64,000 nucleotides of DNA from an uncultured Gammaproteobacteria bacterium (GCA_964609775.1 CAZSSJ010000002.1:19260-83259); one strand, 5' to 3'; counted from the stretch's first letter, positions 396-18,378 are shown. Program-made: numbers and translations. The notes: a model not told the origin generated them from the sequence alone.

Positions 396-1947
396 CCACC
401 AGCCAAAGCCACTGTCTCTAATTATCCTGGTAACCGTTCTCCTTGCGGCCTTCTTCCTTCGCACCTGGCCGACTCTGAGTGACACCACCCATTTTTCCTT
501 TGATCAGGGCCTGGACATGATCATGGCCAAACTGTTGATCGTCGATCACCAGATCAACTTAATCAGTCGCCACAGTGGACTTCAGGGCGTCTTGATGGGC
601 CCCCTCTGGACTTATTTTCTGGCCACCCCTTTTGCCCTTTCAGGTGGTCACCCCTCCGGCAACGTCATCTTCCTGTCTGTTTTTAATCTGGTCACCTCTG
701 TTCTGGCAACTGTGCTGGTCGGCCGGAAATTCGGCTTGACTGCCGGAGTTGTTACCGGACTTTTTTTTCTGTTCTCACCCTCCTTCATCACCGGTTCTCA
801 AGTAGTCCTTAGTCCTTATCCTCTAATACCCTTATTTATTTTTTTCCCCCTACTTGCCCACGAAACCCTAGTTAACAAAAGCAGTCGTTTCGCCTGGCTT
901 CTCATGCTGCTCTTGGGACTATACTTTCAATTCGAAGTCGGCTTTGCCATTTTTGCCCTTCTCGCTTTTGTTGTCCTTTTTGTTTTTTTCCACTCGTGGT
1001 GGCTTTTTAAAAAGCGGTCATTCTGGGCAGGCTGTGGGCTTTTTGTCTTGACATTTTTGCCCCAGATCCTTTTTGACCTTCGCCACCAATTTCTGATAAC
1101 CAGCGGTTTGTTAGCCTACTTTACTGGCAGTAATACTAGTCTTTACCAGAAGTCAGCTCCACTCATCATTCGCCTCGCTCAGCGATTATATTCATTCTAT
1201 GAAGACGCGACCGCAATGGCATTTTTTGGCCATTGGTCGGTGAATATTGCTCTTCTTCTTCTGGTGGTTTCCGGCTGGATAGTCGCTCTAAAGCATGACG
1301 CAAAAACCCATCGGAAATTTTTGCAAATGATCCTTTTGACATTGGCGTCTTTTTTTATCGGTTTTACCCTTTATCCTGGTCCGATTTGGGGTTGGTATCG
1401 AATTGGCCTACCGGCAATCTACATCTTTCTTGTTTCCATACCAACTGGCGTCCTTTGGCAGAGAATGTATCGTCTTCGGCCGTTAATTCTGATCGTTCTA
1501 ATCGCACTATTTTTGACTGGCGTCAAACCCTGGACTCTCTGGCACCTATATAAAAATCCAGGTGTTGGCGGAGTGGGGACACTCAATAATCAAAAAAAAG
1601 TCATCGACTACGTTTATTCTCAGGCAGAGGGAAAGCCGTTCAACTATCTCGTCTATACCCCGCCGGTCTATGACTACATCTGGCAATATGACTTTTGGTG
1701 GTACGGAAGACAAAAATATGGCTATCTTCCGACAAATTGGCAAATGAGTGTGCCCCTATTGGGAATCGGGGAACAATCCAAACCTCCTGCCACCAAAGAA
1801 CCTTTCTTTCTCATTATTGAGCCAAATACCGACCACCCCGACGAATCCGTCAATTGGAAGAAGACTTTAAAACTAGAGCCAGCAGATTCAAAAGCTACTC
1901 TTCCCGGAGGAATTATCGTCGAAAGTCGGCAAGGCGACAATTTATGA
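382..1947 (+). CDS. polytopic membrane protein, GT-C-like putative glycosyltransferase (family unassigned)
   Basis: Long ORF with at least 10 hydrophobic helices and an acidic first-loop motif, FDQGLDM. A C-terminal soluble domain follows. Start is ATG 382 or ATG 358, both overlapping the upstream stop. The stop at 1947 overlaps the next start as ATGA. Confidence 0.5.
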   Translation: MRLSSHQPKPLSLIILVTVLLAAFFLRTWPTLSDTTHFSFDQGLDMIMAKLLIVDHQINLISRHSGLQGVLMGPLWTYFLATPFALSGGHPSGNVIFLSVFNLVTSVLATVLVGRKFGLTAGVVTGLFFLFSPSFITGSQVVLSPYPLIPLFIFFPLLAHETLVNKSSRFAWLLMLLLGLYFQFEVGFAIFALLAFVVLFVFFHSWWLFKKRSFWAGCGLFVLTFLPQILFDLRHQFLITSGLLAYFTGSNTSLYQKSAPLIIRLAQRLYSFYEDATAMAFFGHWSVNIALLLLVVSGWIVALKHDAKTHRKFLQMILLTLASFFIGFTLYPGPIWGWYRIGLPAIYIFLVSIPTGVLWQRMYRLRPLILIVLIALFLTGVKPWTLWHLYKNPGVGGVGTLNNQKKVIDYVYSQAEGKPFNYLVYTPPVYDYIWQYDFWWYGRQKYGYLPTNWQMSVPLLGIGEQSKPPATKEPFFLIIEPNTDHPDESVNWKKTLKLEPADSKATLPGGIIVESRQGDNL

Positions 1948-4010
1948 TCGGTGACTTCCTGCCACTGCAAACAAATCTTTTACCCTATTGGTTTTTTCCC
2001 TGGAACACTAATTCCTGGTCAGGCTTTACTCCCTTTATTTTCCACAAGGAACTATTAGCTATCGACGCTCTGCGCCAGATTTTTGTCTGGAAAGAATTTG
2101 CTTTTTCCCAAATCAGACTAGGTGGGTGGCCGCTCTGGAATCCCTACAGTTTTTCCGGTCAGCCGCTTTTGGCCAATTTCCAATCCTCGGTTTTCTATCC
2201 GTTGTCTTGGTTTTTTATGTTTCTGCCGCCCATGATTGCCTGGGCGGCTTATGTTTTTAGTCAGCCGCTCCTTTTAGTCACTTTTATGTTCTTCTGGATG
2301 CGACCAAAAGTGGGTGCCGTTGCCGCCCTTTTTGCCGCCCTCGCCCTTGCAACGGCCAGTTTTTTTGCCACCCGCTATTTCTGGGGAGTCTACGTTCATT
2401 CGCTGTTATGGATTCCTCTGGGGTTAGGCCTGATTGACCGCTACAAAGAAGCCAAAATCAAAACATCATCTTTCGTCGCCTCTTTTTCCCTGGTTTGTGT
2501 CTTAACGGTTCTGGGTGGTTATCCTCAGTTTGGCTTGTACGCCATTGCCCTTTTGGGAGCGTACTATTTGTATATTTTTGGCAAAAAGCGCCTGCTCCTC
2601 TTTCTCCTTTCCCTGATTTTGGCCTTGTTAATTTCCGCCGTCCAGTTAATCCCAACAGCCGAACTATACCGCTATTCGCTTCGTGAGGGAACTGCCTCAG
2701 CCCGGACCTTTAGCGATTCCCTCTTGTCTCCGAAATACCTTGCTACCATAGTTTACCCCGACATGTTTGGCAGTCCGGCAGTTAATGACTACACTGGAGG
2801 CAAAGACTACTCTGGTGTCAACGGCTATTTTGGCGTCGTCCCCTTTCTTCTGGCTTCGGGTGCTGCTATTTTCTTACGAAGGGACAGACAAGTTAGGTTT
2901 TGGATCGCCGTTGGAGCATTGGGGCTACTTCTTGCCTACGACAATCCTTTTGCTCGGCTACCTCAGGTGTTGCCCTTGCCCATCATAAGCAGCGGGAATG
3001 CGTGGCACAACCTTTTCTTTTTTCAGTTTGCCGGTGTCGTATTAGCCACAATTCTACTTACCAGGTTACCAAAGAGAGCCATTCTCATCTGTCTCCTGTT
3101 GACAACCTTCTTAGGCTTCTATTATTCACTGAAAGTGTCACCCTTCGGACAGACCAAATATTTTTATCCTCCCCACCCTCTTCTTTCTTGGCTAAGGCAA
3201 AATGCTGGCCTAGATCGGTTTTATGGTTATCGCAGTTCCCACTTTCTTTCTAATCTTTCCACCTACTATCGCATCTATAGTCCCGAGGGCTATGACAGTC
3301 TTTGGCCGTCTTGGTACGGAGAGTTACTTTCCTCCGCTGACAGAGGTAAAGTTCCTCCGGAAGTAAATCGGGCGGATGTCTCCGTGACTGATTGGGACAC
3401 TTCCTACCGGCGTAAATTGCTAAATCTTCTGGGGGTCAAATATTTTTTAGACAAATCTGATAAACCCGGCGGCGACCAAGGTCCAAACCTGGCCAAGTAC
3501 CCGGCCGGGCAATTTGTCTTAAGGAAACAATGGGGAGAAGTGTCCATCTATGAAAACAAAGAGGCCTTGCCGAGAGCTTTTTTGGCAGACGGCGTCATCT
3601 CTGCCCCAAAATCGGAAGTCATCGAGAAAATCTATTCTTTGCCCTCGCTTCGGACCATCATCTTGGATTCACCACCCGGCCTGGGGTCAAAAAAACTGAC
3701 CACCGGATCAGCGAGTATTAAAAAATATCTTCCCAATGAGGTAATCGTGACCACCAATTCCCCTGGTAATTCCCTCCTCTTTTTATCCGATACCTACTTC
3801 CCCGGTTGGGATGCTTTCGTAGACGGCCACAAAGCAAAAATCCTTCGGGCTGACTATGCCTTTCGGGCAGTCCCTGTTCCTCCCGGAAAAAATGAAGTAA
3901 GATTCATATATCAACCAAAATCATTTTTTCTTGGGATTTCTATGAGTTTATTAGGGAGCGCGATCTGGCTATGGCTGTTGTTAAAAAATTTTTTCAAGAA
4001 AACTGGCTAG
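1944..4010 (+). CDS. YfhO-family membrane protein (paralog 1 of 4), putative lipid-linked-glycan transferase
   Basis: N-terminal motif FPWNTNSWSGF...WPLWNPYSFSGQPLLANFQSSVFYP is typical of the YfhO family. The C-terminal module is LFLSDTYFPGWDAFVDGHKAKILRADYAFRAVPVPPGKNEVRFIYQP. ATGA overlap with the upstream gene. Confidence 0.8.
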   Translation: MIGDFLPLQTNLLPYWFFPWNTNSWSGFTPFIFHKELLAIDALRQIFVWKEFAFSQIRLGGWPLWNPYSFSGQPLLANFQSSVFYPLSWFFMFLPPMIAWAAYVFSQPLLLVTFMFFWMRPKVGAVAALFAALALATASFFATRYFWGVYVHSLLWIPLGLGLIDRYKEAKIKTSSFVASFSLVCVLTVLGGYPQFGLYAIALLGAYYLYIFGKKRLLLFLLSLILALLISAVQLIPTAELYRYSLREGTASARTFSDSLLSPKYLATIVYPDMFGSPAVNDYTGGKDYSGVNGYFGVVPFLLASGAAIFLRRDRQVRFWIAVGALGLLLAYDNPFARLPQVLPLPIISSGNAWHNLFFFQFAGVVLATILLTRLPKRAILICLLLTTFLGFYYSLKVSPFGQTKYFYPPHPLLSWLRQNAGLDRFYGYRSSHFLSNLSTYYRIYSPEGYDSLWPSWYGELLSSADRGKVPPEVNRADVSVTDWDTSYRRKLLNLLGVKYFLDKSDKPGGDQGPNLAKYPAGQFVLRKQWGEVSIYENKEALPRAFLADGVISAPKSEVIEKIYSLPSLRTIILDSPPGLGSKKLTTGSASIKKYLPNEVIVTTNSPGNSLLFLSDTYFPGWDAFVDGHKAKILRADYAFRAVPVPPGKNEVRFIYQPKSFFLGISMSLLGSAIWLWLLLKNFFKKTG

Positions 4011-6325
4011 TCATCTTTGCTCTGGGTGTCTCCAATCTTGTTTCTTTTTGGCAATTCTACCTTAAGGGTTTGTTACCCTTTCCCGGGGACCTTCTAGTTT
4101 CCTTTTTCTTTCCTTGGAACTCTGGAGGGTTTGTGGGCTTTGATTCCTGGACCACCCACAAGGAATACATCGCCTCCGACGCTCTCCGTGCCCTTTTCCC
4201 CTGGAAGGTCGAAGTCATCCGTCAATTCTTAAGCGGCAATTTTCCTTTGTGGAACCCCTTCAACTTTGCTGGTACACCGCTTCTGGCTGATTTCCAGTCC
4301 GGAGCCTTTTTTCCCACTAATCTTCTTTACGCCTTTCTGCCTCCTCTCACCGTCTGGATTCTCCAAGTGCTAGTTCTCTTGAGTCTGTTTGCCTTTTTTT
4401 CCTATCTGTTCCTGCGTGCCCTCAAACTCTCACCACTTGCCAGTGCTTTTGGAGCTGTTGTTTTGTCGAATTTACCCTATTTGGTCAACTGGCACGAGAT
4501 CCTCGTCGTGACGCAAAGTGCCCTCTTCTTGCCTCTGGATTTGTACCTACTTGAGAAATTTGCTCAAACAAAAAAAACTATTTATCTTTTTTTTCTGCCC
4601 CTTTTTTTGGCCTTCGCAATTTTTGCTGGCCATCCCCAGACAATCATTATGGTCTTCTTTCTCATCGGAAGTTATGCTCTTTTCCGCCGCTTGTCTTTGG
4701 GCAGAATTTTCCTAATTTTCGTAATCTCACTTCTTTTGGGTGCTGTCCAGTTGTTGCCGTCCTGGCAGTTTTATGAATTCTCGGCCCGGGAAGCAGGAGA
4801 CACGGCTAAACTTTTCCTTGACCACCTCTTCCCGTGGCGAAACGTAATAACCGCCCTAGCTCCGGATTTCTTTGGCAATCCGGTGACCGGAAACTTTTGG
4901 GGGTGGGATTATCACAACTCTCTTGCTTATATTGGTGTGACCGCTTTGTTCCTGGCCCTGTTTTCGTTCTTTTGGCAGTCCAGGAGAAGAGAGGTTGGCT
5001 TTTTTGCCCTGCTGGCACTTATTGGCTTGTTGCTGGCCACCTCTCCACTGGCCAACATTTTTCTCTTCTTTAAAATCCCGATTCTCTCCACCGGCATTGC
5101 CGCCAGGAATATTTTTTTCTGGCAGTTTTCTTTGGGAGTTCTCTCCGCTTTTGGTTTGGACTATCTCCTAAATAAGGTCCGACAAAGCAGGTCTCGGTGG
5201 CATTTTGCCCCCCTAATATTTCTTCTAGTTTTATATCTACTGCTTTGGGTTGTTGTCCTCACAAGCTCTTCCCCGGAGTTTCTTATAAGTCGCCATAATC
5301 TGATTCTCCCCACGGCCATCTTTATCCTGACAGCCATCCTGATTCTCGGCGTCATTGTCCAGCCAAAAATAGGAAAATATCTTCTCTTTGTGCTTTTAGC
5401 ATTGGCAATCTTTGAACAGGGGCGCTATTTTAATAAAATCGAACCCTTCGCTAGCCCCGCCTTTGTCTTTCCCGACCACCCGGTCCTGACTTTTTTGCAG
5501 GAAAATGCCGGAACCAACCGCTTTATCGGAGCAGGGACAGCCAAAATTGATAGCAACTTTGCCACCTACTACCGCATTTTTGACCCCCAGGGCTATGACC
5601 CACTCTATCTTCTTCGCTATGGCCAGCTGCTCGCGGCCTCAAAAAATGGCGGTAAAAAAGCGCCTGTCATCTCCCGGGCTGATGCGATGATCGCCAATTT
5701 GGACCGAAATGATGGCTTTAAAGACCGCTTACTCGATATTTTGGGAGTCAAATACGTCCTCGATAATGAAAATATGTCTGTCGCCAGAGACTGGGAACCG
5801 GGGACTCTTGAGACTGCAAACAACCGCCATCTGCTTGTTTGGCAGCAAGAGAACAAGTGGAAAATTTACGAGCGACAAACCGCCCTCCCCCGAACCTTTT
5901 TGGCCGGAAGCTATGAAGTTGCCTCCTCTGATGAGGCAATTTTGGCACGTCTCTTTGATCCAGACTTTGCTGCTCAAGACAAAATTATCTTGGAAAAAGA
6001 TCCCGGTTTTCCAATCACCAATCAAGGCTCTGCCGAGGCAGTAATCACTCATTATTCTCCCAATACCGTCACGATTCAGACCCGTTCCGACCACCCTCGG
6101 CTGCTTTTTCTTTCGGATAATTACTATCACGGTTGGCTAGCAACCCTTGACGGCCAAAAGGCGGAGATTTTTCGGGCTAACTACACTTTTCGCGCCGTTG
6201 CCGCCCCTTCCGGATCGCACGTGGTGGAATTTAGATATAGTCCGGAGTCATTTCGCCTTGGACTAGTTGTCAGCGTTCTGGGTTTGCTGCTATGGCTAAA
6301 ATTTTTGCGACCAACAAGAAGCTAA
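3971..6325 (+). CDS. YfhO-family membrane protein (paralog 2)
   Basis: Motif LLPFPGDLLVSFFFPWNSGGF...WNPFNFAGTPLLADFQSGAFFP and C-terminal YYHGWLATLDGQKAEIFRANYTFRAV. Overlaps the upstream gene by 40 nt. Confidence 0.8.
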   Translation: MAVVKKFFQENWLVIFALGVSNLVSFWQFYLKGLLPFPGDLLVSFFFPWNSGGFVGFDSWTTHKEYIASDALRALFPWKVEVIRQFLSGNFPLWNPFNFAGTPLLADFQSGAFFPTNLLYAFLPPLTVWILQVLVLLSLFAFFSYLFLRALKLSPLASAFGAVVLSNLPYLVNWHEILVVTQSALFLPLDLYLLEKFAQTKKTIYLFFLPLFLAFAIFAGHPQTIIMVFFLIGSYALFRRLSLGRIFLIFVISLLLGAVQLLPSWQFYEFSAREAGDTAKLFLDHLFPWRNVITALAPDFFGNPVTGNFWGWDYHNSLAYIGVTALFLALFSFFWQSRRREVGFFALLALIGLLLATSPLANIFLFFKIPILSTGIAARNIFFWQFSLGVLSAFGLDYLLNKVRQSRSRWHFAPLIFLLVLYLLLWVVVLTSSSPEFLISRHNLILPTAIFILTAILILGVIVQPKIGKYLLFVLLALAIFEQGRYFNKIEPFASPAFVFPDHPVLTFLQENAGTNRFIGAGTAKIDSNFATYYRIFDPQGYDPLYLLRYGQLLAASKNGGKKAPVISRADAMIANLDRNDGFKDRLLDILGVKYVLDNENMSVARDWEPGTLETANNRHLLVWQQENKWKIYERQTALPRTFLAGSYEVASSDEAILARLFDPDFAAQDKIILEKDPGFPITNQGSAEAVITHYSPNTVTIQTRSDHPRLLFLSDNYYHGWLATLDGQKAEIFRANYTFRAVAAPSGSHVVEFRYSPESFRLGLVVSVLGLLLWLKFLRPTRS

Positions 6326-8616
6326 TTCTGGTTTTCCTGTGCCTGTTAGCGGCCAATGTTGCAATTTTCTGGCAGTTCTATTTTCGTGGACTTTTGCCCT
6401 TTCCCGGCGATCTACTGGTGTCATTTTTCTTTCCCTGGAACTCTGGCGGCTTTGCCAATTTTGATCAGTGGACCACTCACAAAGAAGTCATCGCCGCCGA
6501 TGTCATTCGGCAAATGTATCCTTGGAAAGCCCTCCTAGTCAACGCCGTAAAGAACGGCACCTGGCCTCTGTGGAACCCCTACAATTTTTCTGGAACTCCG
6601 CTTCTGGCTAATCTTCAGTCATCCGTTTTCTTTCCGGCCAATGTTGTTTTTCTCTTTTTGCCCCGGCTTGTTTCCTGGATCAGTCTCGTCATTTTTCTCC
6701 CCCTCATTTTTTCCATTTTTTGCTATCTCTTTTTACGCTCTTTAAACATTAGCCGGCTCGCCAGTCTCCTCGGAGCAATCATCCTGTCAAATATTTCTTA
6801 TTTGCTCGTCTGGTCAGAGCAATTGGTCTTTATTCAAAGTGTTCTTTTCCTGCCACTCTCCCTGTTGCTAATTAATTATTATTCAGTTTCAAAAAAACCA
6901 CTTCTTCTCCTCCTTTTGCCCCTAACCTTATCTTTTGCCGTTTTTGGCGGTCACATCCAAACAGTTGTCTATGTTTGTGTTGTGGTAACTTTATATGCCC
7001 TTTTCCGCCGCCTGCCAATCAAATACCTTTTTATCATCGCTCTTTCGACCATAGGCCTGTCATCACTACAACTTCTTCCTTCTCTCGAACTGTATCTCTA
7101 TTCAGCTCGCGAGGGAAATGCCTCTGCCCAGTTGTTTCTTGAATCTGTCCTTCCGATCCAAAATCTCGCCACCATTCTTGCTCCGGATTTCTTCGGCAAC
7201 CCCGCCACCGGCAATTTTTTCGGCTCTGACTATGGCAATAATCAGGTCTATTTCGGAGTATTGGCAGCATTTTTTTCCGTCGTTGGACTTTATTACGGAC
7301 TGAAGGGAAAAAAGAGTTTGACGCTTTTTTTTGCTCTCGTTGGCCTAGGAGGTCTGGTGTTTTCTCTAGATCCTTTTGCTCGCTTGTTTCTTGTTTTTAA
7401 AATCCCGGTTCTTTCTTCAGCGGTCGCTGCCCGAGGAATTTTCATTTTTCAATTTTGTTTTGCCGTCGTGGCCGCTTTGGGAATTGATCAATTTCTGGCA
7501 AACACAAGGAAACGAGCAATAATTACTATTTTTTTCCTCTTTCTCGGCTTCTACCTGCTCCTATATTTTTCCACCAAGTTAATTCCCAATCACGCCACTA
7601 TTGCTCAAAAGAACCTAGTTCTGCCCTTGCTGGTCCTACTTTCCACTGGTGTGACCGCCTTTCTCTCCCGTTTTCGAAGGCAAGCAGCCGTTGTTCTCAT
7701 TCTAATTGCCACTTTGGAATATGCTTATTTTTTCAACAAATTTGCCCCCTTCGCCAGGAGAGAGTTTGTCTTTCCTGGGCATCCGGTTTTCAATTTTTTG
7801 ACGACGCGGGCGGAAGTTGACCGGTTTTACGGCTTCGGGACAGCCTATGTTGACAATAATTTTGCCTCCTACTACCGCGTCTTTTCCGCCGAGGGCTATG
7901 ACTCGCTATATATCAAGCGCTATGGTGAACTTCTCGCCTCCACCAAAAACGGCCAACTTCCCCCAGATGTTCCCCGTTCTGACGCCCTCTTTACAAGTCA
8001 AGACAACGTCTTCCGTAACCGGCTCTTTGATCTTTTAGGCGTCAAGTATATCCTTGATAAAAATGATAATCCCCAGTCAAATTGGGAACCGGAGAATGAC
8101 AAATTCCCCGAGGAGCGCTATAAGCTTGTCTGGCAGAAACTGAAATGGAAAGCCTATGAGAGAAAAACCGCCTTGCCTCGGGTATTTCTCGCCGATTCAT
8201 TCCTCGTTACCAATTCCGACCAGCTGATATTGTCAAAAATGTTTGACCCCCGATTCGATCTGGCAGCCACCGTGATCCTTGAAAAGAACCCCCCTTGGGA
8301 ACTTGCTCCGGGAGGGAAAAGTGAGGCAAAAATGAGCAACTACCGGGAAAACATGGTTGTCATTGAGACACAAGCTGACAAACCCAAAGCACTTTTCTTA
8401 TCAGATACCTACTACCCCGGTTGGAAAGCTACTCTTGATGGAAAACCAATAGATATCTATCGAGCCGATTATATTTTTAGATCCGTCATGGTTCCGTCTG
8501 GAAAACATACTGTCATTTTTAACTACGATCCTGAAACTTTTAAATTTGGGCTTGCCCTTTCAGGATTATCAGCCGCTCTTCTCTTGATAACCATCTTGCG
8601 AAAATCGCATCCATGA
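6292..8616 (+). CDS. YfhO-family membrane protein (paralog 3)
   Basis: The N-terminal 50 aa are almost identical to paralog 2: LLPFPGDLLVSFFFPWNSGGFANFDQWTTHKE. C-terminal YYPGWKATLDGKPIDIYRADYIFRSVMVPSGKHTV. Confidence 0.8.
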   Translation: MAKIFATNKKLILVFLCLLAANVAIFWQFYFRGLLPFPGDLLVSFFFPWNSGGFANFDQWTTHKEVIAADVIRQMYPWKALLVNAVKNGTWPLWNPYNFSGTPLLANLQSSVFFPANVVFLFLPRLVSWISLVIFLPLIFSIFCYLFLRSLNISRLASLLGAIILSNISYLLVWSEQLVFIQSVLFLPLSLLLINYYSVSKKPLLLLLLPLTLSFAVFGGHIQTVVYVCVVVTLYALFRRLPIKYLFIIALSTIGLSSLQLLPSLELYLYSAREGNASAQLFLESVLPIQNLATILAPDFFGNPATGNFFGSDYGNNQVYFGVLAAFFSVVGLYYGLKGKKSLTLFFALVGLGGLVFSLDPFARLFLVFKIPVLSSAVAARGIFIFQFCFAVVAALGIDQFLANTRKRAIITIFFLFLGFYLLLYFSTKLIPNHATIAQKNLVLPLLVLLSTGVTAFLSRFRRQAAVVLILIATLEYAYFFNKFAPFARREFVFPGHPVFNFLTTRAEVDRFYGFGTAYVDNNFASYYRVFSAEGYDSLYIKRYGELLASTKNGQLPPDVPRSDALFTSQDNVFRNRLFDLLGVKYILDKNDNPQSNWEPENDKFPEERYKLVWQKLKWKAYERKTALPRVFLADSFLVTNSDQLILSKMFDPRFDLAATVILEKNPPWELAPGGKSEAKMSNYRENMVVIETQADKPKALFLSDTYYPGWKATLDGKPIDIYRADYIFRSVMVPSGKHTVIFNYDPETFKFGLALSGLSAALLLITILRKSHP

Positions 8617-10103
8617 CCAAAAATACTTTCTTTTTTCTCATTATCCTCCTCCTCCTGCTCATCCCCATTGTCGTCCCTCTTGTCCAGCCCGGTTTCTTTG
8701 TCTCTGATGATGGCGACTGGATGGTTATCAGGCTATCCGCTTTCCACGAAACCCTCAAAACCGGCCAGTTCCCGGTTCGCTTTTTAGAAAGGCTCAATCA
8801 TGGCTACGGCTACCCGGTGACTGACTTTCTTTATCCTCTACCTTTCTATTTGGGAGAAATAATCCATCTCCTGGGCTTCAATTTTGTCGATTCAGTAAAA
8901 ATTCTTTTTGGCATGAGTTTTCTTCTCGGGGCTTTTTCCATGTTTTTCTACGCCAAAGATAAGTGGGGGAATCAGATAGGAATTATTGCTGCCGTTTTTT
9001 ACACTTATTTTCCCTACCGAATTTTTGACGTCTACAAACGTGGCTCGCTGGGAGAATCAGTCGCTTTTGTCTTTATCCCTCTGGTCTTTCTTTTTTATGA
9101 CCGCTTAGTCACCACCAAAAATCTAATATATCTTTCGTTTGGCGCTCTAGCCACAGCAGCCATGATAACCTCTCACAATACCGTTGCTTTTCTTACGTTA
9201 CTTGTCCTCATCGCATATATAACTACTAATCTTTTCTCAAAGACCGAAAAAAAATGGCTAATACTGTCCTCTATGTCTTATCTTGGTCTCTCTTTGACTC
9301 TTTCCGCCTTTTTTGTTATTCCGGCCCTTGTTGACCTCCAGTTCACTAAGACAAGGTTAATCACAATTTCTGATCCAACACGGTTCTTTCTTTCGTTAGA
9401 CAATCTTTTAAGTCTAGCCGGCATCCCAATAATGTTGATCACCGGTGCAGCCATACACCTAATTCGTAAGGGATCACGCGGGGTGGTATTTTGGACAGCT
9501 ATATCAATAGTCTCAATCCTGATGGCCATGTCCGTTTCTGATGTCCTTTGGGCAAATCTATCGTCACTTTCTAAACTAGTCCAATTTCCTTGGCGCTTTC
9601 TTTCGATTACGGCTCTAGCCGGAGCAATCTTAACCGGATTTTTGTTAAGCCACTACAGAATCAAGATATTATTCCCCCTCCTCATAATCTTGCCTGTCAT
9701 TTTCTCAGGAATATTGACACTAAAAATAGACAGAACTTTTCACCCAGAAAGCTATTACACTACCAACGACGACAGCACTACTGTCAAGAACGAATATATG
9801 CCCATTTGGGTAAAAAAAGACCCCACCAACCTTCCTAAGGAAAAAATTGCCTGGATAGACTCAAATCTTGTTCGAGTCAACACTGTATACTTCCCCGGTT
9901 GGGCAGCCTATGTCAATGGGCAAGAAAGGGAAATAATCTACCAGGACGATGGCCTAATCAAATTCGCTGCCCGACCAGACGACAAAATTGAACTTCGCTT
10001 TGAAGAAACTCCACTGCGGGCGGAAGCTAACCTTGTCACCATTTTGGGAATCTTCCTGGCCTTGGCTTTAATACTTTTGCCCCCCAAAAGTCAAATCACA
10101 TGA
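8613..10103 (+). CDS. YfhO-related polytopic membrane protein (H-D...H...R / GQFP-RW family, possibly PTPS-related type), paralog A
   Basis: Motif FVSDDGDWMVIRLSAFHETLKTGQFPVRF...GYGYPVTDFLYPLPFYLGE, with more than 10 TM helices. The C-terminal YFPGWAAYVNGQERE module is shared with YfhO proteins. ATGA overlap upstream. Confidence 0.6.
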   Translation: MTKNTFFFLIILLLLLIPIVVPLVQPGFFVSDDGDWMVIRLSAFHETLKTGQFPVRFLERLNHGYGYPVTDFLYPLPFYLGEIIHLLGFNFVDSVKILFGMSFLLGAFSMFFYAKDKWGNQIGIIAAVFYTYFPYRIFDVYKRGSLGESVAFVFIPLVFLFYDRLVTTKNLIYLSFGALATAAMITSHNTVAFLTLLVLIAYITTNLFSKTEKKWLILSSMSYLGLSLTLSAFFVIPALVDLQFTKTRLITISDPTRFFLSLDNLLSLAGIPIMLITGAAIHLIRKGSRGVVFWTAISIVSILMAMSVSDVLWANLSSLSKLVQFPWRFLSITALAGAILTGFLLSHYRIKILFPLLIILPVIFSGILTLKIDRTFHPESYYTTNDDSTTVKNEYMPIWVKKDPTNLPKEKIAWIDSNLVRVNTVYFPGWAAYVNGQEREIIYQDDGLIKFAARPDDKIELRFEETPLRAEANLVTILGIFLALALILLPPKSQIT

Positions 10104-11749
10104 CAGGGAAAATTGTCATGCTAATTCTTGCCTCAATCATTCTGCTAGGATTTCTTGTCCGCCTATACAGACTTGGCAATATTCCTAACGGCTTTTTCTT
10201 TGACGAAGCCACCATTTCCTACCAGGCATATAGTTTACTCCAGACGGGTAAAGATACCTGGGGAACTGACTTTCCTTTATTGTCATTTAGAGATTATGGA
10301 GAGTACATTTTGCCAATCGGCGTTTATGGTCAAATTCCTAGTCTATTAATTGGAGGGCTAAATGTCTTATCTGCTCGGTTTCCCCATGCTATTTTGGGAA
10401 TACTTAGTGTCCCATTAGTATATTTTTTAGCCAAAGAACTGTTTAAGAACACTAAAATTTCTCTTTTATCTTCATTTTTACTAACAATATCACCTCTTTC
10501 AATTGGTTGGACACGTTTTGTGTTCGAAGGTAATTTCGGGACAGTCCTTTTCTTGAGTGGGACACTTCTTTTCGCCAGGTCTTTAAAAAAGCCCCGACTT
10601 CTACCCTGGTCAATCCTTTCTTTTGGTCTGTCAGCCCTTTCCTATCACATATTTTTAATCCTCACTCCACTTTACTTTTGCCTGCTCTCTCTCCTGAATC
10701 GAAAATCCCCAAGTCTGATTGGACACATAAGACCCATAACTCTCATCATCGTTGTTTTCTTCCTCGCCTGGATCCTGGCTGCTATCGCCTCAGGCGCTGG
10801 TCGGCAGCGCTTTTCCCAAGCCTCAACTCTTCTTACACCTCAAAAAATTGACAACCTCAACCATCAAATTGGCTACTGTTCAAACCAAATGTCTCTCACC
10901 CTGTGCAAAGTATTTCTAAATAAGCCAGTCTTAGCAGCGACCAGCTACCTGGAAAACTACCTCGCCCACTTTTCGCCGGTCTTTTTAGGATTTGACGGGA
11001 CATTCCTTCGCCAAAATGTCTTGCCCAAGTCGGGAATACTTTTACCTGTGGAAATGGTCGGCTTTTTCGTGGGATTATTTTTTCTTGTCAGATCACCTAC
11101 TTCTTTAGCGAGCCGGATTTTATTACCGATAATCCTGATCTATCCCGTGGCTAATAGCTTCACTGGTCTGGGAGAAATCAGCCGGATTGCCTTTGCCAGC
11201 CCCTTTCTCTCGCTTGTCGCCGCCTATGGTTTGGTGCGAATCACCCAAACTTTCCGGGTGTTTAAGCCCCCGCTTTTTCTGGCTATTCTTTACAGCGTTG
11301 TCAGTTTCCTCATCACTTATTTTCTAATCTTCCCCAAAACTAACGCCTACTACACCAATTTTGGCTACGACAAAGTATTTTCTTGGGTGCGGGCCAATCA
11401 GTCTAAATATGACCGGATTTTTATCTCCCGCAACTATGCCGGTTCCGTTCCCTACATTTCTGCCCAATTTTTCCTGCCCATTGATCCGCAGATGTTTCAA
11501 AGGGGTCAAGTGGAGAGAAAAAAATCGCCTGAGGGTTATTATCAGATTGAATCCGTTGACCAGAAATTTCGATTTTTTCAAAATTTACACTCTGAAGCTC
11601 TTAAGCCAAATGATTTTGTTGTCGCCACCCCTGAGGACATTCAATCTTATGCGCTAACGCCGAAATTTACTATAATTGATCCCACGGGGAGAAAACTGCT
11701 CCTTGGCGTTGAAGCAAATGAAATTTTGGCAAAAACTGCTGTCCCTTAG
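10100..11749 (+). CDS. GT39 / PMT_2 / ArnT-like glycosyltransferase family membrane protein (paralog 1)
   Basis: N-terminal signature LRLYRLGNIPNGFFFDEATISYQAYSLLQTGKD matches the LRLYRL...P..L..DE...GYNAYS hallmark of the family. Polytopic. ATGA overlap upstream. Confidence 0.8.
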   Translation: MTGKIVMLILASIILLGFLVRLYRLGNIPNGFFFDEATISYQAYSLLQTGKDTWGTDFPLLSFRDYGEYILPIGVYGQIPSLLIGGLNVLSARFPHAILGILSVPLVYFLAKELFKNTKISLLSSFLLTISPLSIGWTRFVFEGNFGTVLFLSGTLLFARSLKKPRLLPWSILSFGLSALSYHIFLILTPLYFCLLSLLNRKSPSLIGHIRPITLIIVVFFLAWILAAIASGAGRQRFSQASTLLTPQKIDNLNHQIGYCSNQMSLTLCKVFLNKPVLAATSYLENYLAHFSPVFLGFDGTFLRQNVLPKSGILLPVEMVGFFVGLFFLVRSPTSLASRILLPIILIYPVANSFTGLGEISRIAFASPFLSLVAAYGLVRITQTFRVFKPPLFLAILYSVVSFLITYFLIFPKTNAYYTNFGYDKVFSWVRANQSKYDRIFISRNYAGSVPYISAQFFLPIDPQMFQRGQVERKKSPEGYYQIESVDQKFRFFQNLHSEALKPNDFVVATPEDIQSYALTPKFTIIDPTGRKLLLGVEANEILAKTAVP

Positions 11750-13454
11750 CCCTCTTGTTGTTCTCTTTATCGCCTCATTTTGGTCCTGGAAGCCGCTTCT
11801 GGCCTCCGGCTTTTTTACAATTCATGACAACCAGCAGATCGCCCGGCTGTTTGAATTAAATAAAGCTCTTCTTGCTGGTCAGTTTCCCGTTCGCTGGGTG
11901 CCGGATCTGGGTTTTAGCTTTGGCTACCCGCTCTTTAATTTCTATCCGCCCCTGATTTATTATCTCGGCGAACTCTTTCATCTGTTGCTCGGGACAGGAT
12001 TCATTGACTCAATTAAGATAGTTTGGTTCGTCGCCCTGGTGGGATCGGGGATTGCCATGTACTTCTTGGCGAAAGAGTACTTTGGCAGAGCAGGAGGACT
12101 CGTTGCCGCGATGTTTTATGTTTACGCTCCCTACCACGCCGTCGACGCCTACGTCCGCGGGTCTTTGGCCGAACTTTTTTCTTTTGTTTGGCTCCCCCTC
12201 ATCCTGCTGGCATTGTATAAAATTGTGACTTTGCCAATAAGCTACGATCGTTGGATTTTGGCAAGCGGTATTCTCCTTGGCCTGCTGATGATCACCCACA
12301 ACCTCATTTTTCTCCCTTTTGTGGGAATATCAGCCCTTTGGTATTTTGCTCTAGTATTAATTTATCGCCGTAACGAACCGGTCCGTTATACTTTATACTT
12401 TATACTTTATACAGCCCTTTGTTTCGCTCTATCAGCCTTTTTCTGGCTGCCGGCGCTGGCTGAAAAACAATTCACCCTCGTTGACCAACTCCTGATTAAG
12501 AATCTGGCTTCCTACCAAATCCATTTTGTCTGCCCGCAGCAGTTATGGAACAGTCCCTGGGGTTTTGGCGGTTCGACTGCAGGTTGTCTTGATGGCCTGT
12601 CATTCAAACTCGGCAAGCTGCACATCTTGGCAGCCATAGCCTCTTTCGGGGCTGTCGCCTACCTCTGGCTTAAAGCTCACAAAAAGCTAGCGTTAGTAAT
12701 TCTTATATCTTATTTCTTATTTTTTATATCCCTGTTCATGACTACTGACTATTCAAAAATTTTGTGGGACAATTTTCCCCCTCTTTGGTACCTTCAGTTC
12801 CCCTGGCGTTTTCTGGAATTTGCCACCCTTTTTGCCGCGCTAATTGCGGGGAGTATCTTGGCGTTGGTCAAAAATATCCCCCTTAAAATATTGGTTACCA
12901 TAACGCTAATTTCGGCAATTCTCTACATCGAAGCTAAAAACTTCGTTCCCCAAACCCACCTCTTCACTGACACAGACGACCAAGAAACTTCTGATGAGCA
13001 AATTAAGTGGGTCATCAGTTCAACTTCGTTTGAGTATCTCCCAAAAGAAGTTGCCACTAGAGTCACAGACCTCGGGACCGTTTGGGTCGATATTGATCGA
13101 TCAAAAATTCCCCCCCGAAAGTATCAAGTTCTCTCCGGAAACTTGCAAAGCACCGAGGAAATATTTCTTCCCCATCGTTTCAAACTCACTGGCCAATTTA
13201 CAAACGAGACGACAATTCAAATTAATGTGGCAAACTTTCCCGGGTGGGAAGTGTGGCTCGATGGTTCCGAAGCACGCATCAGGGATAACAATGCCTATAA
13301 ATTGATCACTATCAATGTCCCCCCAGGAAACCATACACTAACTGGGCAATTTACCAATACCTGGCCGAGGTCCCTAGGTAACACCATTTCCATCATTGCA
13401 CTCATCGCGTTAGCCCTTTACTTTGGAAAATATGGAATTAGAAGAAGTTCTTAA
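11718..13454 (+). CDS. YfhO-related polytopic membrane protein (H-D...H...R / GQFP-RW family), paralog B
   Basis: FTIHDNQQIARLFELNKALLAGQFPVRWVPDLGFSFGYPLFNFYPPLIYYLGE is the same motif as 8613..10103 and 37536..39206. C-terminal NFPGWEVWLDGSEARI. An alternative upstream start exists at 11676. Confidence 0.6.
   Translation: MKFWQKLLSLSPLVVLFIASFWSWKPLLASGFFTIHDNQQIARLFELNKALLAGQFPVRWVPDLGFSFGYPLFNFYPPLIYYLGELFHLLLGTGFIDSIKIVWFVALVGSGIAMYFLAKEYFGRAGGLVAAMFYVYAPYHAVDAYVRGSLAELFSFVWLPLILLALYKIVTLPISYDRWILASGILLGLLMITHNLIFLPFVGISALWYFALVLIYRRNEPVRYTLYFILYTALCFALSAFFWLPALAEKQFTLVDQLLIKNLASYQIHFVCPQQLWNSPWGFGGSTAGCLDGLSFKLGKLHILAAIASFGAVAYLWLKAHKKLALVILISYFLFFISLFMTTDYSKILWDNFPPLWYLQFPWRFLEFATLFAALIAGSILALVKNIPLKILVTITLISAILYIEAKNFVPQTHLFTDTDDQETSDEQIKWVISSTSFEYLPKEVATRVTDLGTVWVDIDRSKIPPRKYQVLSGNLQSTEEIFLPHRFKLTGQFTNETTIQINVANFPGWEVWLDGSEARIRDNNAYKLITINVPPGNHTLTGQFTNTWPRSLGNTISIIALIALALYFGKYGIRRSS
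12386..12412. repeat. 7-bp tandem repeat (ttatact) x3.9 inside a membrane-protein CDS
   Basis: Read directly: ttatact ttatact ttatact ttatac. Encodes RYTLYFILYT. Confidence 0.9.
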
Positions 13455-14877
13455 TCGGACCGTAAAAAGCGTCATCGCGCTGACGAGCCGCAGCGTTGTC
13501 TTGCTGCTGATTCAGGCCGTGGCTTATTCTCTTCTCATCGCTTTTCTGGGAGCCCAGGAGATCGGCATTTTTATTGTCGTCTCGGCAATTTTGCGCGTCT
13601 TCACTTTCTTTACCGATTTGGGATTGGGCGCCGCCCTCATCCAGAAAAAAGAAAATTTAGACCAGGATGACCTGCGCTCTGCCTTTACTATTCAAACCGC
13701 ACTGGTCCTCATAATTATCGCCGTTGCCTTTGCGCTCACCCCGCTTGTCAGATCCTATGCCAATTTGGACCCGGCCGGAGTTTTTCTTTACCAGGTTCTC
13801 GCCTTCACTTTGCTCATTTCTTCCTTAAAAATGATCCCCTCGATTCTTCTGGAGAGGCAGCTGCGCTTTGAAAAACAAATCATTCCCCAAATCGTCGAGG
13901 CATTGGTATTCAACAGCTTGGTGGTCATTCTGGCGGCCAAACATTTTGGTGTCGCCTCCTATTCATGGGCCATTCTAGTTTCCTCTCTCGCCGGATTGCC
14001 CGTCTACTACCTAATTTCGCCGTGGAGAATTTCCCTGGGATTGTCGAAAGATGTGGCCAAACACCTCATTCGCTATGGCCTCCCTTTCCAAGGCAAGAGT
14101 GTCCTGGCGATAATAAAAGATGATCTTCTGGTCTTCTTTCTTTCCGGAATTGTTGGCACCGCCGGAATTGGCTACTGGGGGACGGCGCAAAAATTTGCCT
14201 ATTATCCCTTCCGTCTGCTCGTCGACACTCTCACTAAAGTCACTTTTCCCGCTTATTCGCGAATTCAACTGGAAAAAGAAGCCTTAAGAATTGGTATAGA
14301 AAAATCGCTACTTGCCGTCAGCCTCCTGCTCTTTCCGGTGCTCACCTTAATCGCCGTGCTGGCCCACAATCTTGTTTATTTAATCCCCAAATATCAAAAG
14401 TGGGAGCCGTCACTGCCTTCTCTCTATTTCCTCTGTGCGGGGGCGGCCGTCTCTGCCTTGTCAAACATTTTGGTGAACGCCCTTGACGCTACCGGACACG
14501 TCAAAACAACTCTGGGGTTGATGGTAATGTGGATAGTATTAACCTGGGTTGGAACTTTGGTCCTCGTAGCCAAGTTTGGTTTTACCGGAATAGCTATGGC
14601 CTCGTTCGTGGTCGCTCTCACCATTATTCTTACCATCTACTTGGTTAAACGGGTTGTCAATTTTCGCTTTTTGGGAAGTATCTTCAAGCCATTTTTGGGT
14701 TCCCTACTTATGGGGCTTTCGGTGTTTGCCCTCATTCAAGTTCTGCCAATCTCCTTCCCGGCTCTTCTTCTTGAAGGTATTGCTGGTGCTATAATTTATT
14801 TGGGTGCGATGTATCTGCTCGCCCGCAAGGAACTATTAGCGGATCTGAGAATCGTCATCAAAACTTTCAGAAAATGA
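13423..14877 (+). CDS. Wzx-like oligosaccharide flippase (polysaccharide biosynthesis protein family, MOP superfamily)
   Basis: N-terminus NRTVKSVIALTSRSVVLLLIQAVAYSLLIAFLGAQEIGIF...LGLGAALIQ matches the Polysacc_synt family. About 12-14 TM helices. Confidence 0.75.
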   Translation: MENMELEEVLNRTVKSVIALTSRSVVLLLIQAVAYSLLIAFLGAQEIGIFIVVSAILRVFTFFTDLGLGAALIQKKENLDQDDLRSAFTIQTALVLIIIAVAFALTPLVRSYANLDPAGVFLYQVLAFTLLISSLKMIPSILLERQLRFEKQIIPQIVEALVFNSLVVILAAKHFGVASYSWAILVSSLAGLPVYYLISPWRISLGLSKDVAKHLIRYGLPFQGKSVLAIIKDDLLVFFLSGIVGTAGIGYWGTAQKFAYYPFRLLVDTLTKVTFPAYSRIQLEKEALRIGIEKSLLAVSLLLFPVLTLIAVLAHNLVYLIPKYQKWEPSLPSLYFLCAGAAVSALSNILVNALDATGHVKTTLGLMVMWIVLTWVGTLVLVAKFGFTGIAMASFVVALTIILTIYLVKRVVNFRFLGSIFKPFLGSLLMGLSVFALIQVLPISFPALLLEGIAGAIIYLGAMYLLARKELLADLRIVIKTFRK

Positions 14878-15770: not shown

Positions 15771-16700
15771 ATGGAAAAAACTGAACTCTCAATTGCCACC
15801 ATTCTCCATAACGAGGAGGCGAACGTTGTCGAACTCCACCGGAGATTAAGCACGGTCCTAAAAACCCTCAATAAAACCCATGAAATTATTTTGGTAGATG
15901 ATGGCAGCACTGACAGGACACTTGATAAACTCAAGACGCTTCGCCAAAAGGACAGATCCATCAAAATCATCTCTCTCTCGCGAAACTTCGGTATCGAGGC
16001 CGCCGCCACTGCCGCCCTAGATCACACCAGCGGAGAAATGGTTGTTCTCATGGACGGCGACCTTCAGGACGCCCCGGAATTCATTCCCTCACTCCTGAAT
16101 AAAATTGGACAGGGCTACGACGTCGTCTACGCCCAGCACCCAAAGAGAAAAGACACCCTCGTGAAGCAAGCACTTTTTGGTAGCTTTTATCGGCTGATGG
16201 ACAAACTGGCCGACTATAAATTTCCCGTTGACGTGGGTCATTTTTCCGTGATGAGACGGCCGGTTGTCGACGTGTTGACGCAAATGACGGAAAGAAATCG
16301 GTTTATTGCCGGACTTCGGGCTTGGGTGGGCTTCAAACAAACAGGAATCCTGTATGAAAAACAGGCCAGGTTTGCCGGCAAACCACCACAAACATTTAAA
16401 AAGTTGCTCAAAATGGGCTTTGATGCTTTGTTTTCTTTCTCGTACATCCCACTTCGAGTTGCAACATTAATGGGTCTATTGGTCGCTATTGGAACAATTA
16501 TTGTGATCATTAACGTTTTGTATCAAAAATTCGTCGTCAACACTGCTATTATCGGATGGGCTGGACCCATGCTCTCAATATTGATCATCGGAGGTGTGCA
16601 ACTTTTCATTCTCGGCATAATCGGGGAATATTTAGCCAGAATCTATGATGAAGTCAAAAGGCGTCCCTACTATATCGTCTCTGAGAAAATTGGTTTCTAA
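15771..16700 (+). CDS. family 2 glycosyltransferase, polyprenol-phosphate sugar synthase type (GtrB/ArnC/DPM1-like) with C-terminal TM helices
   Basis: IILVDDGSTDRT...MDGDLQDAPE, and two C-terminal TM helices (LMGLLVAIGTIIVIINVLY / ILIIGGVQLFILGIIGEYL). This arrangement is typical of GtrB/ArnC. Confidence 0.8.
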   Translation: MEKTELSIATILHNEEANVVELHRRLSTVLKTLNKTHEIILVDDGSTDRTLDKLKTLRQKDRSIKIISLSRNFGIEAAATAALDHTSGEMVVLMDGDLQDAPEFIPSLLNKIGQGYDVVYAQHPKRKDTLVKQALFGSFYRLMDKLADYKFPVDVGHFSVMRRPVVDVLTQMTERNRFIAGLRAWVGFKQTGILYEKQARFAGKPPQTFKKLLKMGFDALFSFSYIPLRVATLMGLLVAIGTIIVIINVLYQKFVVNTAIIGWAGPMLSILIIGGVQLFILGIIGEYLARIYDEVKRRPYYIVSEKIGF

Positions 16701-18378
16701 CGGGAGAGAGTTTGTCCCGCCGCTTGCCCCGGCAATATTCTTCACCCTGGTAGTCATCTACCTTCAGGGGGCAACAATTTTCCCCAGTGGTTTGTTTGAC
16801 AAAAGTGGCAACCTCATTTTCTATAATGATGTCCTCTTCCATGACAGCAATGTCCATCTTTCTTTAACGGGTGAACTCCTTCACCGTTTCCCCCCCACCA
16901 ATTTTGCTGCTTCCGGCGTACCTCTCAAAAACTATCATTATCTCTTTGACGTCTTTCTCGCCGTCATGCATAAATTAACGGCAATATCGGTTCTCGATCT
17001 TTATTTTCGCCTTGTCCCCGTAATTTTATCTTCTCTTTTATGTTTAGTCATTTATCAGTCTCTGATGGTCTTAACGAAAAAGCGTTGGGCCTGCGCTTTA
17101 GGGATCTTCTTTACGATTCTGGCAACCAGTTGGGGACCGCAGACGCCCTTCGTTAAAGACATCCTTGGCGCTTCGCCAGTGACCCCGGCCAGCAATCTTT
17201 TTATGACCGACCAGCTGCTAAGTATGCTTGTCAATCCCCAGGGTCAATTGTCCTTGATCGTCTTCCTCACTCTTTTTCTCTTGCTCCATCACTACGAACA
17301 CACAAAAAGAACTATCACGCTAGTTCTTTTTGCTTTGCTCCTGGGACTGTCGTTTGGGATCAAAGCCTATGGGGGAATCGTCTTTGCCCCAGCGGCAATC
17401 TTTAGTGCCGTCTACTTTATCATCCGCACCAGAGATCCAAAACCACTCCTCGCTGTCCTTTTTGGCTTTGCGATTATGGCTTCGTGGGTTGCCCTTACGA
17501 TTGATAGAGGCGTCGCCGGTTTGCAATTCGCCCCCTTCTGGCTGCTGGATCACATGATGACTGACCTGGATAAGCTCAACGAACCCCGTTTCTTGCTCCT
17601 CAAAGAACACTACACCCAGATGAGTAATTGGGCTCGTTTGTTTGTTCTAAATCTCTTTTCTCTAGCAATCTATGTCTTCGGCAGTTTGGGTTTGCGTCTC
17701 TTCGGTCTACTGGGCGTCATTTGGCTCATCAAGCAAAAGATGTCATCTCCCTCGCTCTTCTTTTTAATCACTGCCGCGGCGATCTCTTTTACCGTCCCTG
17801 TCCTTTTCAACCAATCGAAAAAAGCCTACGACACCGTCCAGTTTACCCCATACTTCACCCTCTTCATGGGCTTGATGTTCTCCGTAACCGTGTTTATCTT
17901 CCTAAAACATCTCCGGAAGCGCCGCATATTCAAAGCGATTTTTGCCGTGTCTGTTGTCACCTTAGTCATCCTTTTAAATCTCAGCGAAATTTCCATCCGA
18001 TTTCGACCAAGAGAAGAGAAAATAGTCATCCCTAACACCACACTCGAGGCGACTGAGTATGTCAGAACCGAAACCCCACCAAACGCCATTTTTCTGCTCG
18101 CTCCGACGGAGTTTAATCGCAGCTACCTCATCTTTTCCTCCTTGACACAAAGGCGGACGGCTTTTTCCGGACTGGATTTTGCCTACCAAGTGGGGCAGGA
18201 CACCCAACGCCTACGCACCCAGTGGGAGAGCTATTTTGCCGACGGGAAAGTGCCAGCTGACGTTGACTATCTATTTATTCCCGCCCCGGAAGAGGACGAT
18301 TTTGTTAGAATTAAAGAAAACTCCCGCTTCGTCACCGTCTTTGACAACAGCGCGGTAAAAATTCTTAAAAAAAGTTGA
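16645..18378 (+). CDS. polytopic membrane protein with C-terminal soluble domain, GT-C-like (unassigned)
   Basis: More than 10 hydrophobic helices. The start is uncertain: ATG 16645 overlaps the upstream gene by 56 nt, and TTG 16687 is an alternative. Stop overlaps the next gene as ATGA. Confidence 0.5.
   Translation: MMKSKGVPTISSLRKLVSNGREFVPPLAPAIFFTLVVIYLQGATIFPSGLFDKSGNLIFYNDVLFHDSNVHLSLTGELLHRFPPTNFAASGVPLKNYHYLFDVFLAVMHKLTAISVLDLYFRLVPVILSSLLCLVIYQSLMVLTKKRWACALGIFFTILATSWGPQTPFVKDILGASPVTPASNLFMTDQLLSMLVNPQGQLSLIVFLTLFLLLHHYEHTKRTITLVLFALLLGLSFGIKAYGGIVFAPAAIFSAVYFIIRTRDPKPLLAVLFGFAIMASWVALTIDRGVAGLQFAPFWLLDHMMTDLDKLNEPRFLLLKEHYTQMSNWARLFVLNLFSLAIYVFGSLGLRLFGLLGVIWLIKQKMSSPSLFFLITAAAISFTVPVLFNQSKKAYDTVQFTPYFTLFMGLMFSVTVFIFLKHLRKRRIFKAIFAVSVVTLVILLNLSEISIRFRPREEKIVIPNTTLEATEYVRTETPPNAIFLLAPTEFNRSYLIFSSLTQRRTAFSGLDFAYQVGQDTQRLRTQWESYFADGKVPADVDYLFIPAPEEDDFVRIKENSRFVTVFDNSAVKILKKS

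Follow-up and report, generated by a model that had tools for sequence, protein, structure and literature searches.

Three PF10131 membrane proteins of a Microgenomates-type locus as probable compact GT-C relatives of YfhO

We analysed a stretch of DNA of 64,000 nucleotides, deposited under the name of an uncultured Gammaproteobacteria bacterium (GCA_964609775.1, CAZSSJ010000002.1:19260-83259); this whole stretch is called the window here, and positions are counted from its first letter. Three of its genes encode paralogous membrane proteins, which we call PTPS_a, PTPS_b and PTPS_c. A preliminary description, made from the sequence, had placed three paralogous open reading frames (ORFs) at 8613, 11718 and 37536, and all of them were found on the plus strand with the coordinates claimed (Table 1). 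Their pairwise identities are 30-33 % (33 % between PTPS_b and PTPS_a). The frame of PTPS_b is open from TTG 11676, which is an alternative start. PTPS_a has an exact counterpart (100 % identity) in UY21_C0001G0068, a hypothetical protein of the Microgenomates group bacterium GW2011_GWA1_48_10. The window also encodes four YfhO proteins, as the preliminary description had stated: PF09586 was confirmed for the genes starting at 1854, 3971, 6292 and 20347, and the third of these genes overlaps the start of PTPS_a.

The proteins were compared with Pfam. PTPS_a (43.6 bits) and PTPS_c (52.9 bits, E 2.8e-14) matched PF10131 (PTPS_related; gathering threshold 26.4). The tentative assignment to the PTPS-related membrane proteins is borne out. 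PTPS_b gave no Pfam match above threshold; its orthologues in two related loci (L001 and L002) do match PF10131. Two hidden Markov models (HMMs) were built, one from 120 homologues of PTPS_a and the other from 120 YfhO proteins of the Candidate Phyla Radiation (CPR). The PTPS-family HMM matched all three paralogues over their full length (PTPS_b, E 2.4e-99; PTPS_c, E 2.2e-107), whereas none of the three matched the YfhO HMM. In the Pfam scan, the full-length PTPS proteins likewise gave no PF09586 match, and their membrane core was not recognised by the YfhO model. Thus, at the level of HMMs, the proteins form a family of glycosyltransferase fold C (GT-C) type that is distinct from YfhO: the cores of PTPS_a and PTPS_c match PF10131 and not PF09586. 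No NCBIfam model matched the three proteins. PF10131 has been placed in the Pfam GT-C clan CL0111, with its function given as unknown (PMC7801869). The PTPS proteins match only positions ~4-343 of the 621 positions of PF10131, and their isolated C-terminal fragments never match it, even at E<=10.

The predicted fold of PTPS_a is a GT-C fold with 12 transmembrane (TM) segments, which resembles solved GT-C enzymes. At NCBI, homologues carry the label '6-pyruvoyl-tetrahydropterin synthase-related protein', and the corresponding Pfam name could be taken to indicate a pterin-related function. Apart from this name, nothing speaks for such a function. A Pfam scan of the PTPS proteins (maximum E 1) gave no PTPS catalytic domain and nothing besides PF10131, the predicted fold is that of a 12-TM GT-C protein, and the neighbouring genes all belong to glycan assembly. 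Pterin chemistry was therefore rejected on the basis of fold and gene context, and we consider its probability to be negligible.

The three paralogues have an N-terminal motif in common, as had been noticed at the outset. It reads SDDGDWMVIRL...GQFPVRF...GYGYP...FLYPLPF in PTPS_a, IHDNQQIARL...GQFPVRW...SFGYP...FYPPLIY in PTPS_b and SHDGATHAARI...HQFPPRW...GMGSP...IYPLPY in PTPS_c. The preliminary description had proposed that conserved His, Asp and Arg residues in this motif might bind metal or phosphate. We mapped conservation on a family alignment of 108 sequences, to which the following statements refer. The conservation of Asp and Arg was confirmed, since D33, R40 and R56 are invariant. 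That of His was not: the first His is replaced by Asp in PTPS_a, and the second His is present in PTPS_c only. The family consensus at the first motif is S-D-D-G-x-W-M-V-I-R. In total, 18 residues are invariant (D33, R40, P54, R56, G66, P75, K96, Y135, R143, E148, H188, N189, P237, W313, P326, R328, E394 and P428), and six of them (D33, R40, R56, P54, G66 and P75) are also invariant across the window's three paralogues. D32 is conserved in at least 90 % of the sequences.

To place these residues relative to the membrane, Lys and Arg in the short loops of PTPS_a were counted: 12 lie inside and 2 outside. Because of this bias, we assign an N-in/C-in topology. With this topology, all 18 invariant residues lie in extracytoplasmic loops or near the outer ends of TM helices. 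In the model, TM1 (residues 3-24) is followed by the first juxtamembrane helix (residues 34-49). The D32-D33 pair, within 'PGFFVSDDG', lies 8-9 residues past TM1, at the N-terminus of this helix and on the outer side, and conserved acidic residues are thus found in the first extracytoplasmic loop (EL1) of the PTPS family. This position after TM1 is equivalent to that of '...DE[AV]' in the window's PMT_2 paralogues, and we take it to be where GT-C enzymes carry their catalytic EL1 Asp/Glu. Judging from this location and from its conservation, the pair D32-D33 is likely to be a catalytic base or a metal site. The invariant basic and polar residues at the outer boundary of the membrane (R40, R56, K96, R143, E148, H188/N189, R328 and E394) are candidates for contacts with the phosphate of the donor and with the acceptor. 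With their extracytoplasmic orientation, the conserved Asp and Arg residues lie where a catalytic and phosphate-binding site is expected in a GT-C enzyme. A further conserved extracytoplasmic segment, YTTNDDSTTVKNEYMPIW, follows the last TM helix of the core and precedes the C-terminal beta-sandwich described below; its conservation exceeds that of the beta-sandwich. GT-C folds need not be catalytic: PIG-U in the glycosylphosphatidylinositol transamidase is a non-catalytic protein of this fold. By comparison with PIG-U, the PTPS proteins could be subunits that act as a scaffold for the YfhO or PMT_2 enzymes encoded nearby or present substrates to them; we regard this as very improbable.

The preliminary description had also claimed that the PTPS and YfhO proteins share a C-terminal module. 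Profile-profile comparison with hhalign clearly supports this claim. The C-termini of the window's three PTPS and four YfhO proteins scored 96.7 % (E 4e-10), and deep independent profiles of the two C-termini scored 98.7 % (E 1.9e-16, 73 columns). In contrast, the negative controls (PMT_2 paralogues, the YfhO middle domain and the YfhO core) remained below 1 %. When PTPS C-terminal fragments alone were searched, 18 of 41 matched PF09586 at positions ~758-826 (best E 1.6e-7); the fragment of PTPS_b matched positions 766-823 (E 0.0017). Identity within the module between the two families is ~22 %. An HMM of the seven C-termini detected the module in no further ORF of the window. The module was correctly described as a beta-sandwich: both the full-length model and a model of the isolated module (predicted local distance difference test, pLDDT, 93.1) show six beta-strands (residues 412-463) followed by a TM helix (residues 467-488). 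The '...VP-G-H' part is degenerate in PTPS_a (ARPDDK), and the module of PTPS_c has a 13-residue insertion. The C-terminus of YfhO_3 matches the C-termini of the NCBIfam models PgfM1 and PgfM2. Therefore, canonical YfhO enzymes of Firmicutes possess the module as well. Its probable role is to cap or stabilise the outer face or to assist acceptor binding.

The next question is how the module came to be present in both families. The preliminary description considered it to be appended to two different catalytic cores. With HMMER, the module is indeed the only similarity across the families: YfhO_1 matches the PTPS HMM at 411-488 only (independent E 9.7e-8). It is because this level of comparison detects only the module that the cores had seemed different. 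When profiles were compared with hhalign, the cores alone aligned from TM1 on (98.6 %, E 1.4e-15, 333 columns), and the full-length proteins aligned colinearly (PTPS residues 2-493 with YfhO residues 8-773; 99.4 %, E 1.6e-21). In YfhO, an insertion of ~270 amino acids separates the module from the last core helix that the two families share. These results do not support two different cores. Because both the cores and the whole proteins align, the best explanation for the shared C-terminus is that the architecture as a whole descends from a common ancestor. We propose that the PTPS family and YfhO form two sister lineages of GT-C proteins, both of which would have inherited the whole architecture, including the beta-sandwich and the TM anchor. 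The difference in the large extracytoplasmic insertion reflects either a gain in YfhO or a loss in the PTPS lineage.

Alternatively, a unit of beta-sandwich and TM helix might have been fused independently onto two unrelated or distantly related GT-C cores. Such domain shuffling would fit the profile-sequence (HMMER) result, the restriction of the PF09586 matches of PTPS C-terminal fragments to its last ~70 positions, and the somewhat better preservation of the module than of the cores between the families. However, it does not account for the alignment of the cores from TM1 and the colinearity of the whole proteins. Moreover, the module is absent from the profile of the eight PMT_2 paralogues and from all other ORFs of the window, including those of further GT-C types, and the low module identity shows that no recent exchange took place. 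Domain shuffling is therefore unlikely.

Conversely, the end-to-end homology might mean that the PTPS proteins are truncated or divergent YfhO proteins and form no separate family. Several homologues have a precomputed match to PF09586 alone, or to PF09586 together with PF10131, and annotations as 'YfhO' span more than one family (Durairaj et al. 2023, PMC10584680), as this explanation would have it. However, the HMM searches described above gave no match of the PTPS cores to PF09586; the cores match PF10131 instead, and the YfhO HMM recognised none of the three proteins although the PTPS HMM recognised all. The invariant motifs SDDGxWM, GQFPVR, TTVKNEYMP and ETPxR are absent from YfhO. In addition, both types are conserved neighbours in ~90 % of the loci, as expected for old, functionally distinct paralogues. 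The PTPS proteins thus do not simply fall inside PF09586, and we give this explanation little credence. The sister relationship of PTPS and YfhO remains our preferred interpretation.

Taken together, we propose, with a probability of roughly 75 %, that the PTPS proteins are polyprenyl-phosphate-sugar-dependent extracytoplasmic GT-C glycosyltransferases of family PF10131 and form a compact sister lineage of YfhO. Several points weigh against this proposal. The match to PF10131 stops at ~343 of 621, so canonical PF10131 proteins may be different in their C-terminal third. A characterised PF10131 member was not found in the searchable literature, and PDB searches with PTPS_a, YfhO_3 and the family profile (by sequence and by profile) detected no GT-C structure. 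The hhalign alignment does not pair D32-D33 with the Asp of 'PGDL' in YfhO. Finally, the greater closeness of PTPS to YfhO than to PMT_2 is indicative, because the outgroup profile, built from eight paralogues, is shallow: the PTPS core scored 92 % against the window's PMT_2 paralogues (E 6e-7, 207 columns), and the YfhO core scored 45 % against them.

Comparison with known systems places the PTPS proteins as follows. With YfhO (YfhO of B. subtilis, S. aureus and L. monocytogenes; PgfM1/PgfM2 of S. mutans; PgtC2 of S. pyogenes) they have in common the GT-C fold, the colinear architecture with the C-terminal beta-sandwich and TM anchor, and the same kinds of partner (a CsbB/PgfS-type glycosyltransferase of family 2, GT2, and a flippase), and they are immediate genomic neighbours. 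In contrast to YfhO, they have neither the two additional TM helices nor the large extracytoplasmic domain found there ahead of the module, and they match YfhO HMMs in the module only. Compared with canonical PF10131, PTPS_a and PTPS_c exceed the gathering score and PTPS_b is below Pfam detection, and the C-terminal third of the window's proteins resembles the YfhO C-terminus instead. Enzymes of the PMT/PMT_2/ArnT type (yeast Pmt4, 9e61; ArnT, 5f15; GtlB; GacL) show the weaker profile similarity given above and do not possess the YFPGW beta-sandwich/TM module; PMT enzymes have MIR domains instead. Mycobacterial AftD (DUF3367, 6wbx) has ~1,300-1,400 amino acids with several carbohydrate-binding modules; its similarity in the module is below significance and a relationship is undetectable in sequence. 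YfhO-like proteins have been reported to form separate, undescribed GT-C families, such as the dark family 'Component 27' (Durairaj et al. 2023, Nature; PMC10584680). The median length of this family is 665 amino acids.

Genes for plausible partners are encoded nearby (Table 1). The MOP/Wzx-type flippase gene directly downstream of PTPS_b is inferred to act on lipid-linked sugars or glycans, and the PgfS/ArnC-like GT2 at 15771 is a candidate polyprenyl-phosphate-sugar synthase that would supply the donor. Both lie less than 3 kb from PTPS_b, and this arrangement of GT2 and flippase is kept in 38-48 of 55 related loci. A GT2 of the AglJ/Dol-P-hexose synthase type is encoded two genes upstream of PTPS_c, and a further GT2 of this kind at 22554. 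No small flippase of the GtrA type was found among the ORFs scanned.

Table 1 Features of the window discussed in the text. Sub-features follow the gene to which they belong.
Feature	Position (nt)	Strand	Remarks
PTPS_a	8613-10103	+	496 amino acids; predicted compact GT-C glycosyltransferase of PF10131 type
PTPS_a, EL1 (residues 25-90)	8685-8882	+	outside by positive-inside count; putative catalytic and phosphate-binding site
PTPS_a, D32-D33 acidic pair	8706-8711	+	in EL1
PTPS_a, Q52-F-P-V-R56	8766-8780	+	in EL1, along with R40
PTPS_a, YTTNDDSTTVKNEYMPIW (residues 382-399)	9756-9809	+	from conservation map; contains invariant E394
PTPS_a, C-terminal module (residues 418-489)	9864-10079	+	YFPGW...NG beta-sandwich and terminal TM helix
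PTPS_b	11718-13454	+	578 amino acids from ATG 11718; second paralogue
PTPS_b, HDN	11823-11831	+	
PTPS_b, QFPVR	11880-11894	+	
PTPS_b, C-terminal module	13209-13424	+	
PTPS_c	37536-39206	+	556 amino acids; third paralogue
PTPS_c, HDG	37626-37634	+	
PTPS_c, QFPPR	37686-37700	+	
PTPS_c, C-terminal module	38943-39197	+	
YfhO_1	1854-4010	+	PF09586; module at 3771-3983
YfhO_2	3971-6325	+	PF09586; module at 6098-6307
YfhO_3	6292-8616	+	PF09586; module at 8386-8598; directly upstream of PTPS_a, overlapping it
YfhO_4	20347-22557	+	PF09586; module at 22414-22554
MOP/Wzx-type flippase	13423-14877	+	PF13440, E 6e-47; NCBIfam MOP flippase, E 2e-35
GT2, PgfS/CsbB/ArnC type	15771-16700	+	NCBIfam PgfS, E 5.6e-74, full length; ArnC, E 3e-44
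GT2, AglJ/Dol-P-hexose synthase type	35326-36075	+	TIGR04182, E 1.8e-19; Dol-P-hexose transferase, E 1.7e-14
PpgS-like GT2	42104-42784		polyprenyl-phospho-N-acetylgalactosaminyl synthase model, E 4.9e-43
PMT_2-like genes	358, 10100, 23183, 24867, 26810, 29717, 31249, 32907, 46352		
GT87-like gene	28399		
PIG-V-like gene	40880		
PaaX central/Cas2-like domain protein	34475-35122	-	PF20803, E 3e-17; CRISPR_Cas2, E 4e-6

The gene order is conserved. Two related genomes repeat the order YfhO (several genes), PTPS, PTPS, (GT2), Wzx, GT2 and so on. Among the 55 loci, which are from species representatives and have full 6-kb flanks, YfhO is present in 50, at least two PTPS genes in 51, Wzx in 48 and PMT_2 in 50. 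Relatives are encoded in at least 556 species genomes, and all of those with informative names are Microgenomates-type Patescibacteria. At least 18 GT-C candidates, nearly all on the plus strand, were counted in the first 47.6 kb of the window (358-47593): nine PMT_2-like, four YfhO, three PTPS, one GT87-like and one PIG-V-like, some of them below Pfam cut-offs.

Teichoic acids and Ser/Thr-rich proteins are the targets of YfhO-type enzymes, which have CsbB/PgfS/GtrB partners, and YfhO, GtlB, GacL, PgfM1 and PgtC2 work with a GT2 of the CsbB/GtrB/PgfS type and a flippase (PMC8035078; PMC12041528). By analogy with such characterised three-component systems of the YfhO, PMT_2 and ArnT types, a mechanism can be drawn for the PTPS proteins. 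Initially, cytoplasmic GT2s of the locus (PgfS/ArnC-like, AglJ/DPM-like and PpgS-like) would load a sugar onto polyprenyl phosphate. The lipid-linked sugar would then be flipped across the membrane, for which the Wzx/MOP flippase gene adjoining the PTPS pair may be responsible. Finally, the PTPS enzyme would move the sugar, at the outer face, to an extracytoplasmic acceptor, which may be a surface glycopolymer or a protein. By this analogy, the PTPS proteins most likely transfer a monosaccharide from a polyprenyl-phosphate donor to an extracytoplasmic acceptor. The analysis itself shows the fold, the family membership, the full-length homology to YfhO, the outward location of the conserved residues and the conserved synteny; enzymatic activity, donor, acceptor and what the module does are inferred. 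More tentatively, the Microgenomates operon (GT2, PMT_2, several YfhO, a tandem PTPS pair, GT2 and Wzx) might be part of an unusually large extracytoplasmic GT-C 'assembly line' for an envelope glycopolymer or a heavily glycosylated surface layer of these ultrasmall bacteria. In this assembly line, the minimal version of a YfhO-class GT-C subclass would be the PF10131 enzymes, with the beta-sandwich and C-terminal TM clamp as an obligatory structural part. Such an assembly line, which we consider possible rather than probable, would be analogous to mycobacterial arabinogalactan and lipoarabinomannan synthesis.

The family PF10131 and the GT-C superfamily were already known, and the diversity of YfhO-like families had been noted (Durairaj et al. 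2023, PMC10584680). New here are a GT-C model, of which we are confident, for the PF10131 proteins of CPR bacteria, the proposal that this CPR branch is a compact sister of YfhO with a C-terminal module common by descent, and the conserved operon around the PTPS genes. With these results, PF10131, whose name misleadingly refers to pterin metabolism, and proteins deposited as 'hypothetical' can be annotated in structural and mechanistic terms. The results define a compact scaffold of ~500 amino acids that is suitable for structural or biochemical study of the YfhO class, for which no solved structure was detectable by sequence search. They also draw attention to a strongly conserved glycan-assembly operon of Microgenomates. 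It is plausible that cell-surface glycans mediate the episymbiotic lifestyle of CPR bacteria; a link of this operon to that lifestyle is speculation. We regard the outcome as a useful annotation of modest interest and not as a new kind of system.

Several further observations were made. A profile of the module (PTPS_a residues 439-481, window ~9927-10055) matched PDB entry 9k1u_D with E 3e-4. This entry is an 89-amino-acid Ser/Thr kinase chain from the RtkS-PpkA complex (Foldseek probability 0.99 over 40 columns). The YxPGW...DG...G-H beta-sandwich may thus be one representative of a more widespread group of extracytoplasmic domains in bacteria. The idea of a PEGA/CarboxypepD_reg-type domain was kept as a lead only: the 9k1u_D fragment matched CarboxypepD_reg with E 0.0045, below the cut-off, and the module fragments matched no Pfam family of this type.

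Among the YfhO genes, YfhO_4 ends right after the beta part (...HLVKFQI, then stop), without the terminal TM helix of the other six module proteins, and the GT2 gene that follows begins within an overlap with its stop. YfhO_1 matches the CPR YfhO HMM as two domains, with positions ~395-462 missing. When read from TTG 1854, YfhO_1 has a long basic N-terminal extension; the true start is therefore probably further downstream.

A small DUF2304 membrane protein (E 3.9e-21) is encoded directly after the PpgS-like GT2, the pair occupying 42104-43129. This pair resembles the mycobacterial PpgS/Rv3632 pair, which feeds a GT-C enzyme. The GT-C genes are interspersed with many GT2 and glycosyltransferase family 4 (GT4) genes, and their number within ~47 kb is remarkable for a small CPR genome. 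The PaaX/Cas2-like gene is the only sizeable minus-strand gene in the cluster and divides the glycosylation region into two halves; its product may be a regulator. Three large ORFs (16645-18378, 36082-37539 and 45235-46365) gave no Pfam match. The first two look polytopic from their sequence. The first has a syntenic counterpart in the related locus L001 (16456-18159), likewise with no Pfam match, and the second lies between the DPM-like GT2 gene and PTPS_c. All three may encode further divergent GT-C enzymes or polymerases.

Many of the species-representative metagenome-assembled genomes that bear the operon (L004, L009-L011, L016, L017, L024 and others) are titled 'uncultured Gammaproteobacteria bacterium' (binchicken, SRP co-assemblies), and one locus, L015, is titled 'Candidatus Pacearchaeota archaeon'. 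Because their synteny is the same as in Levybacteria loci, these titles are probably placeholders or mis-assignments.

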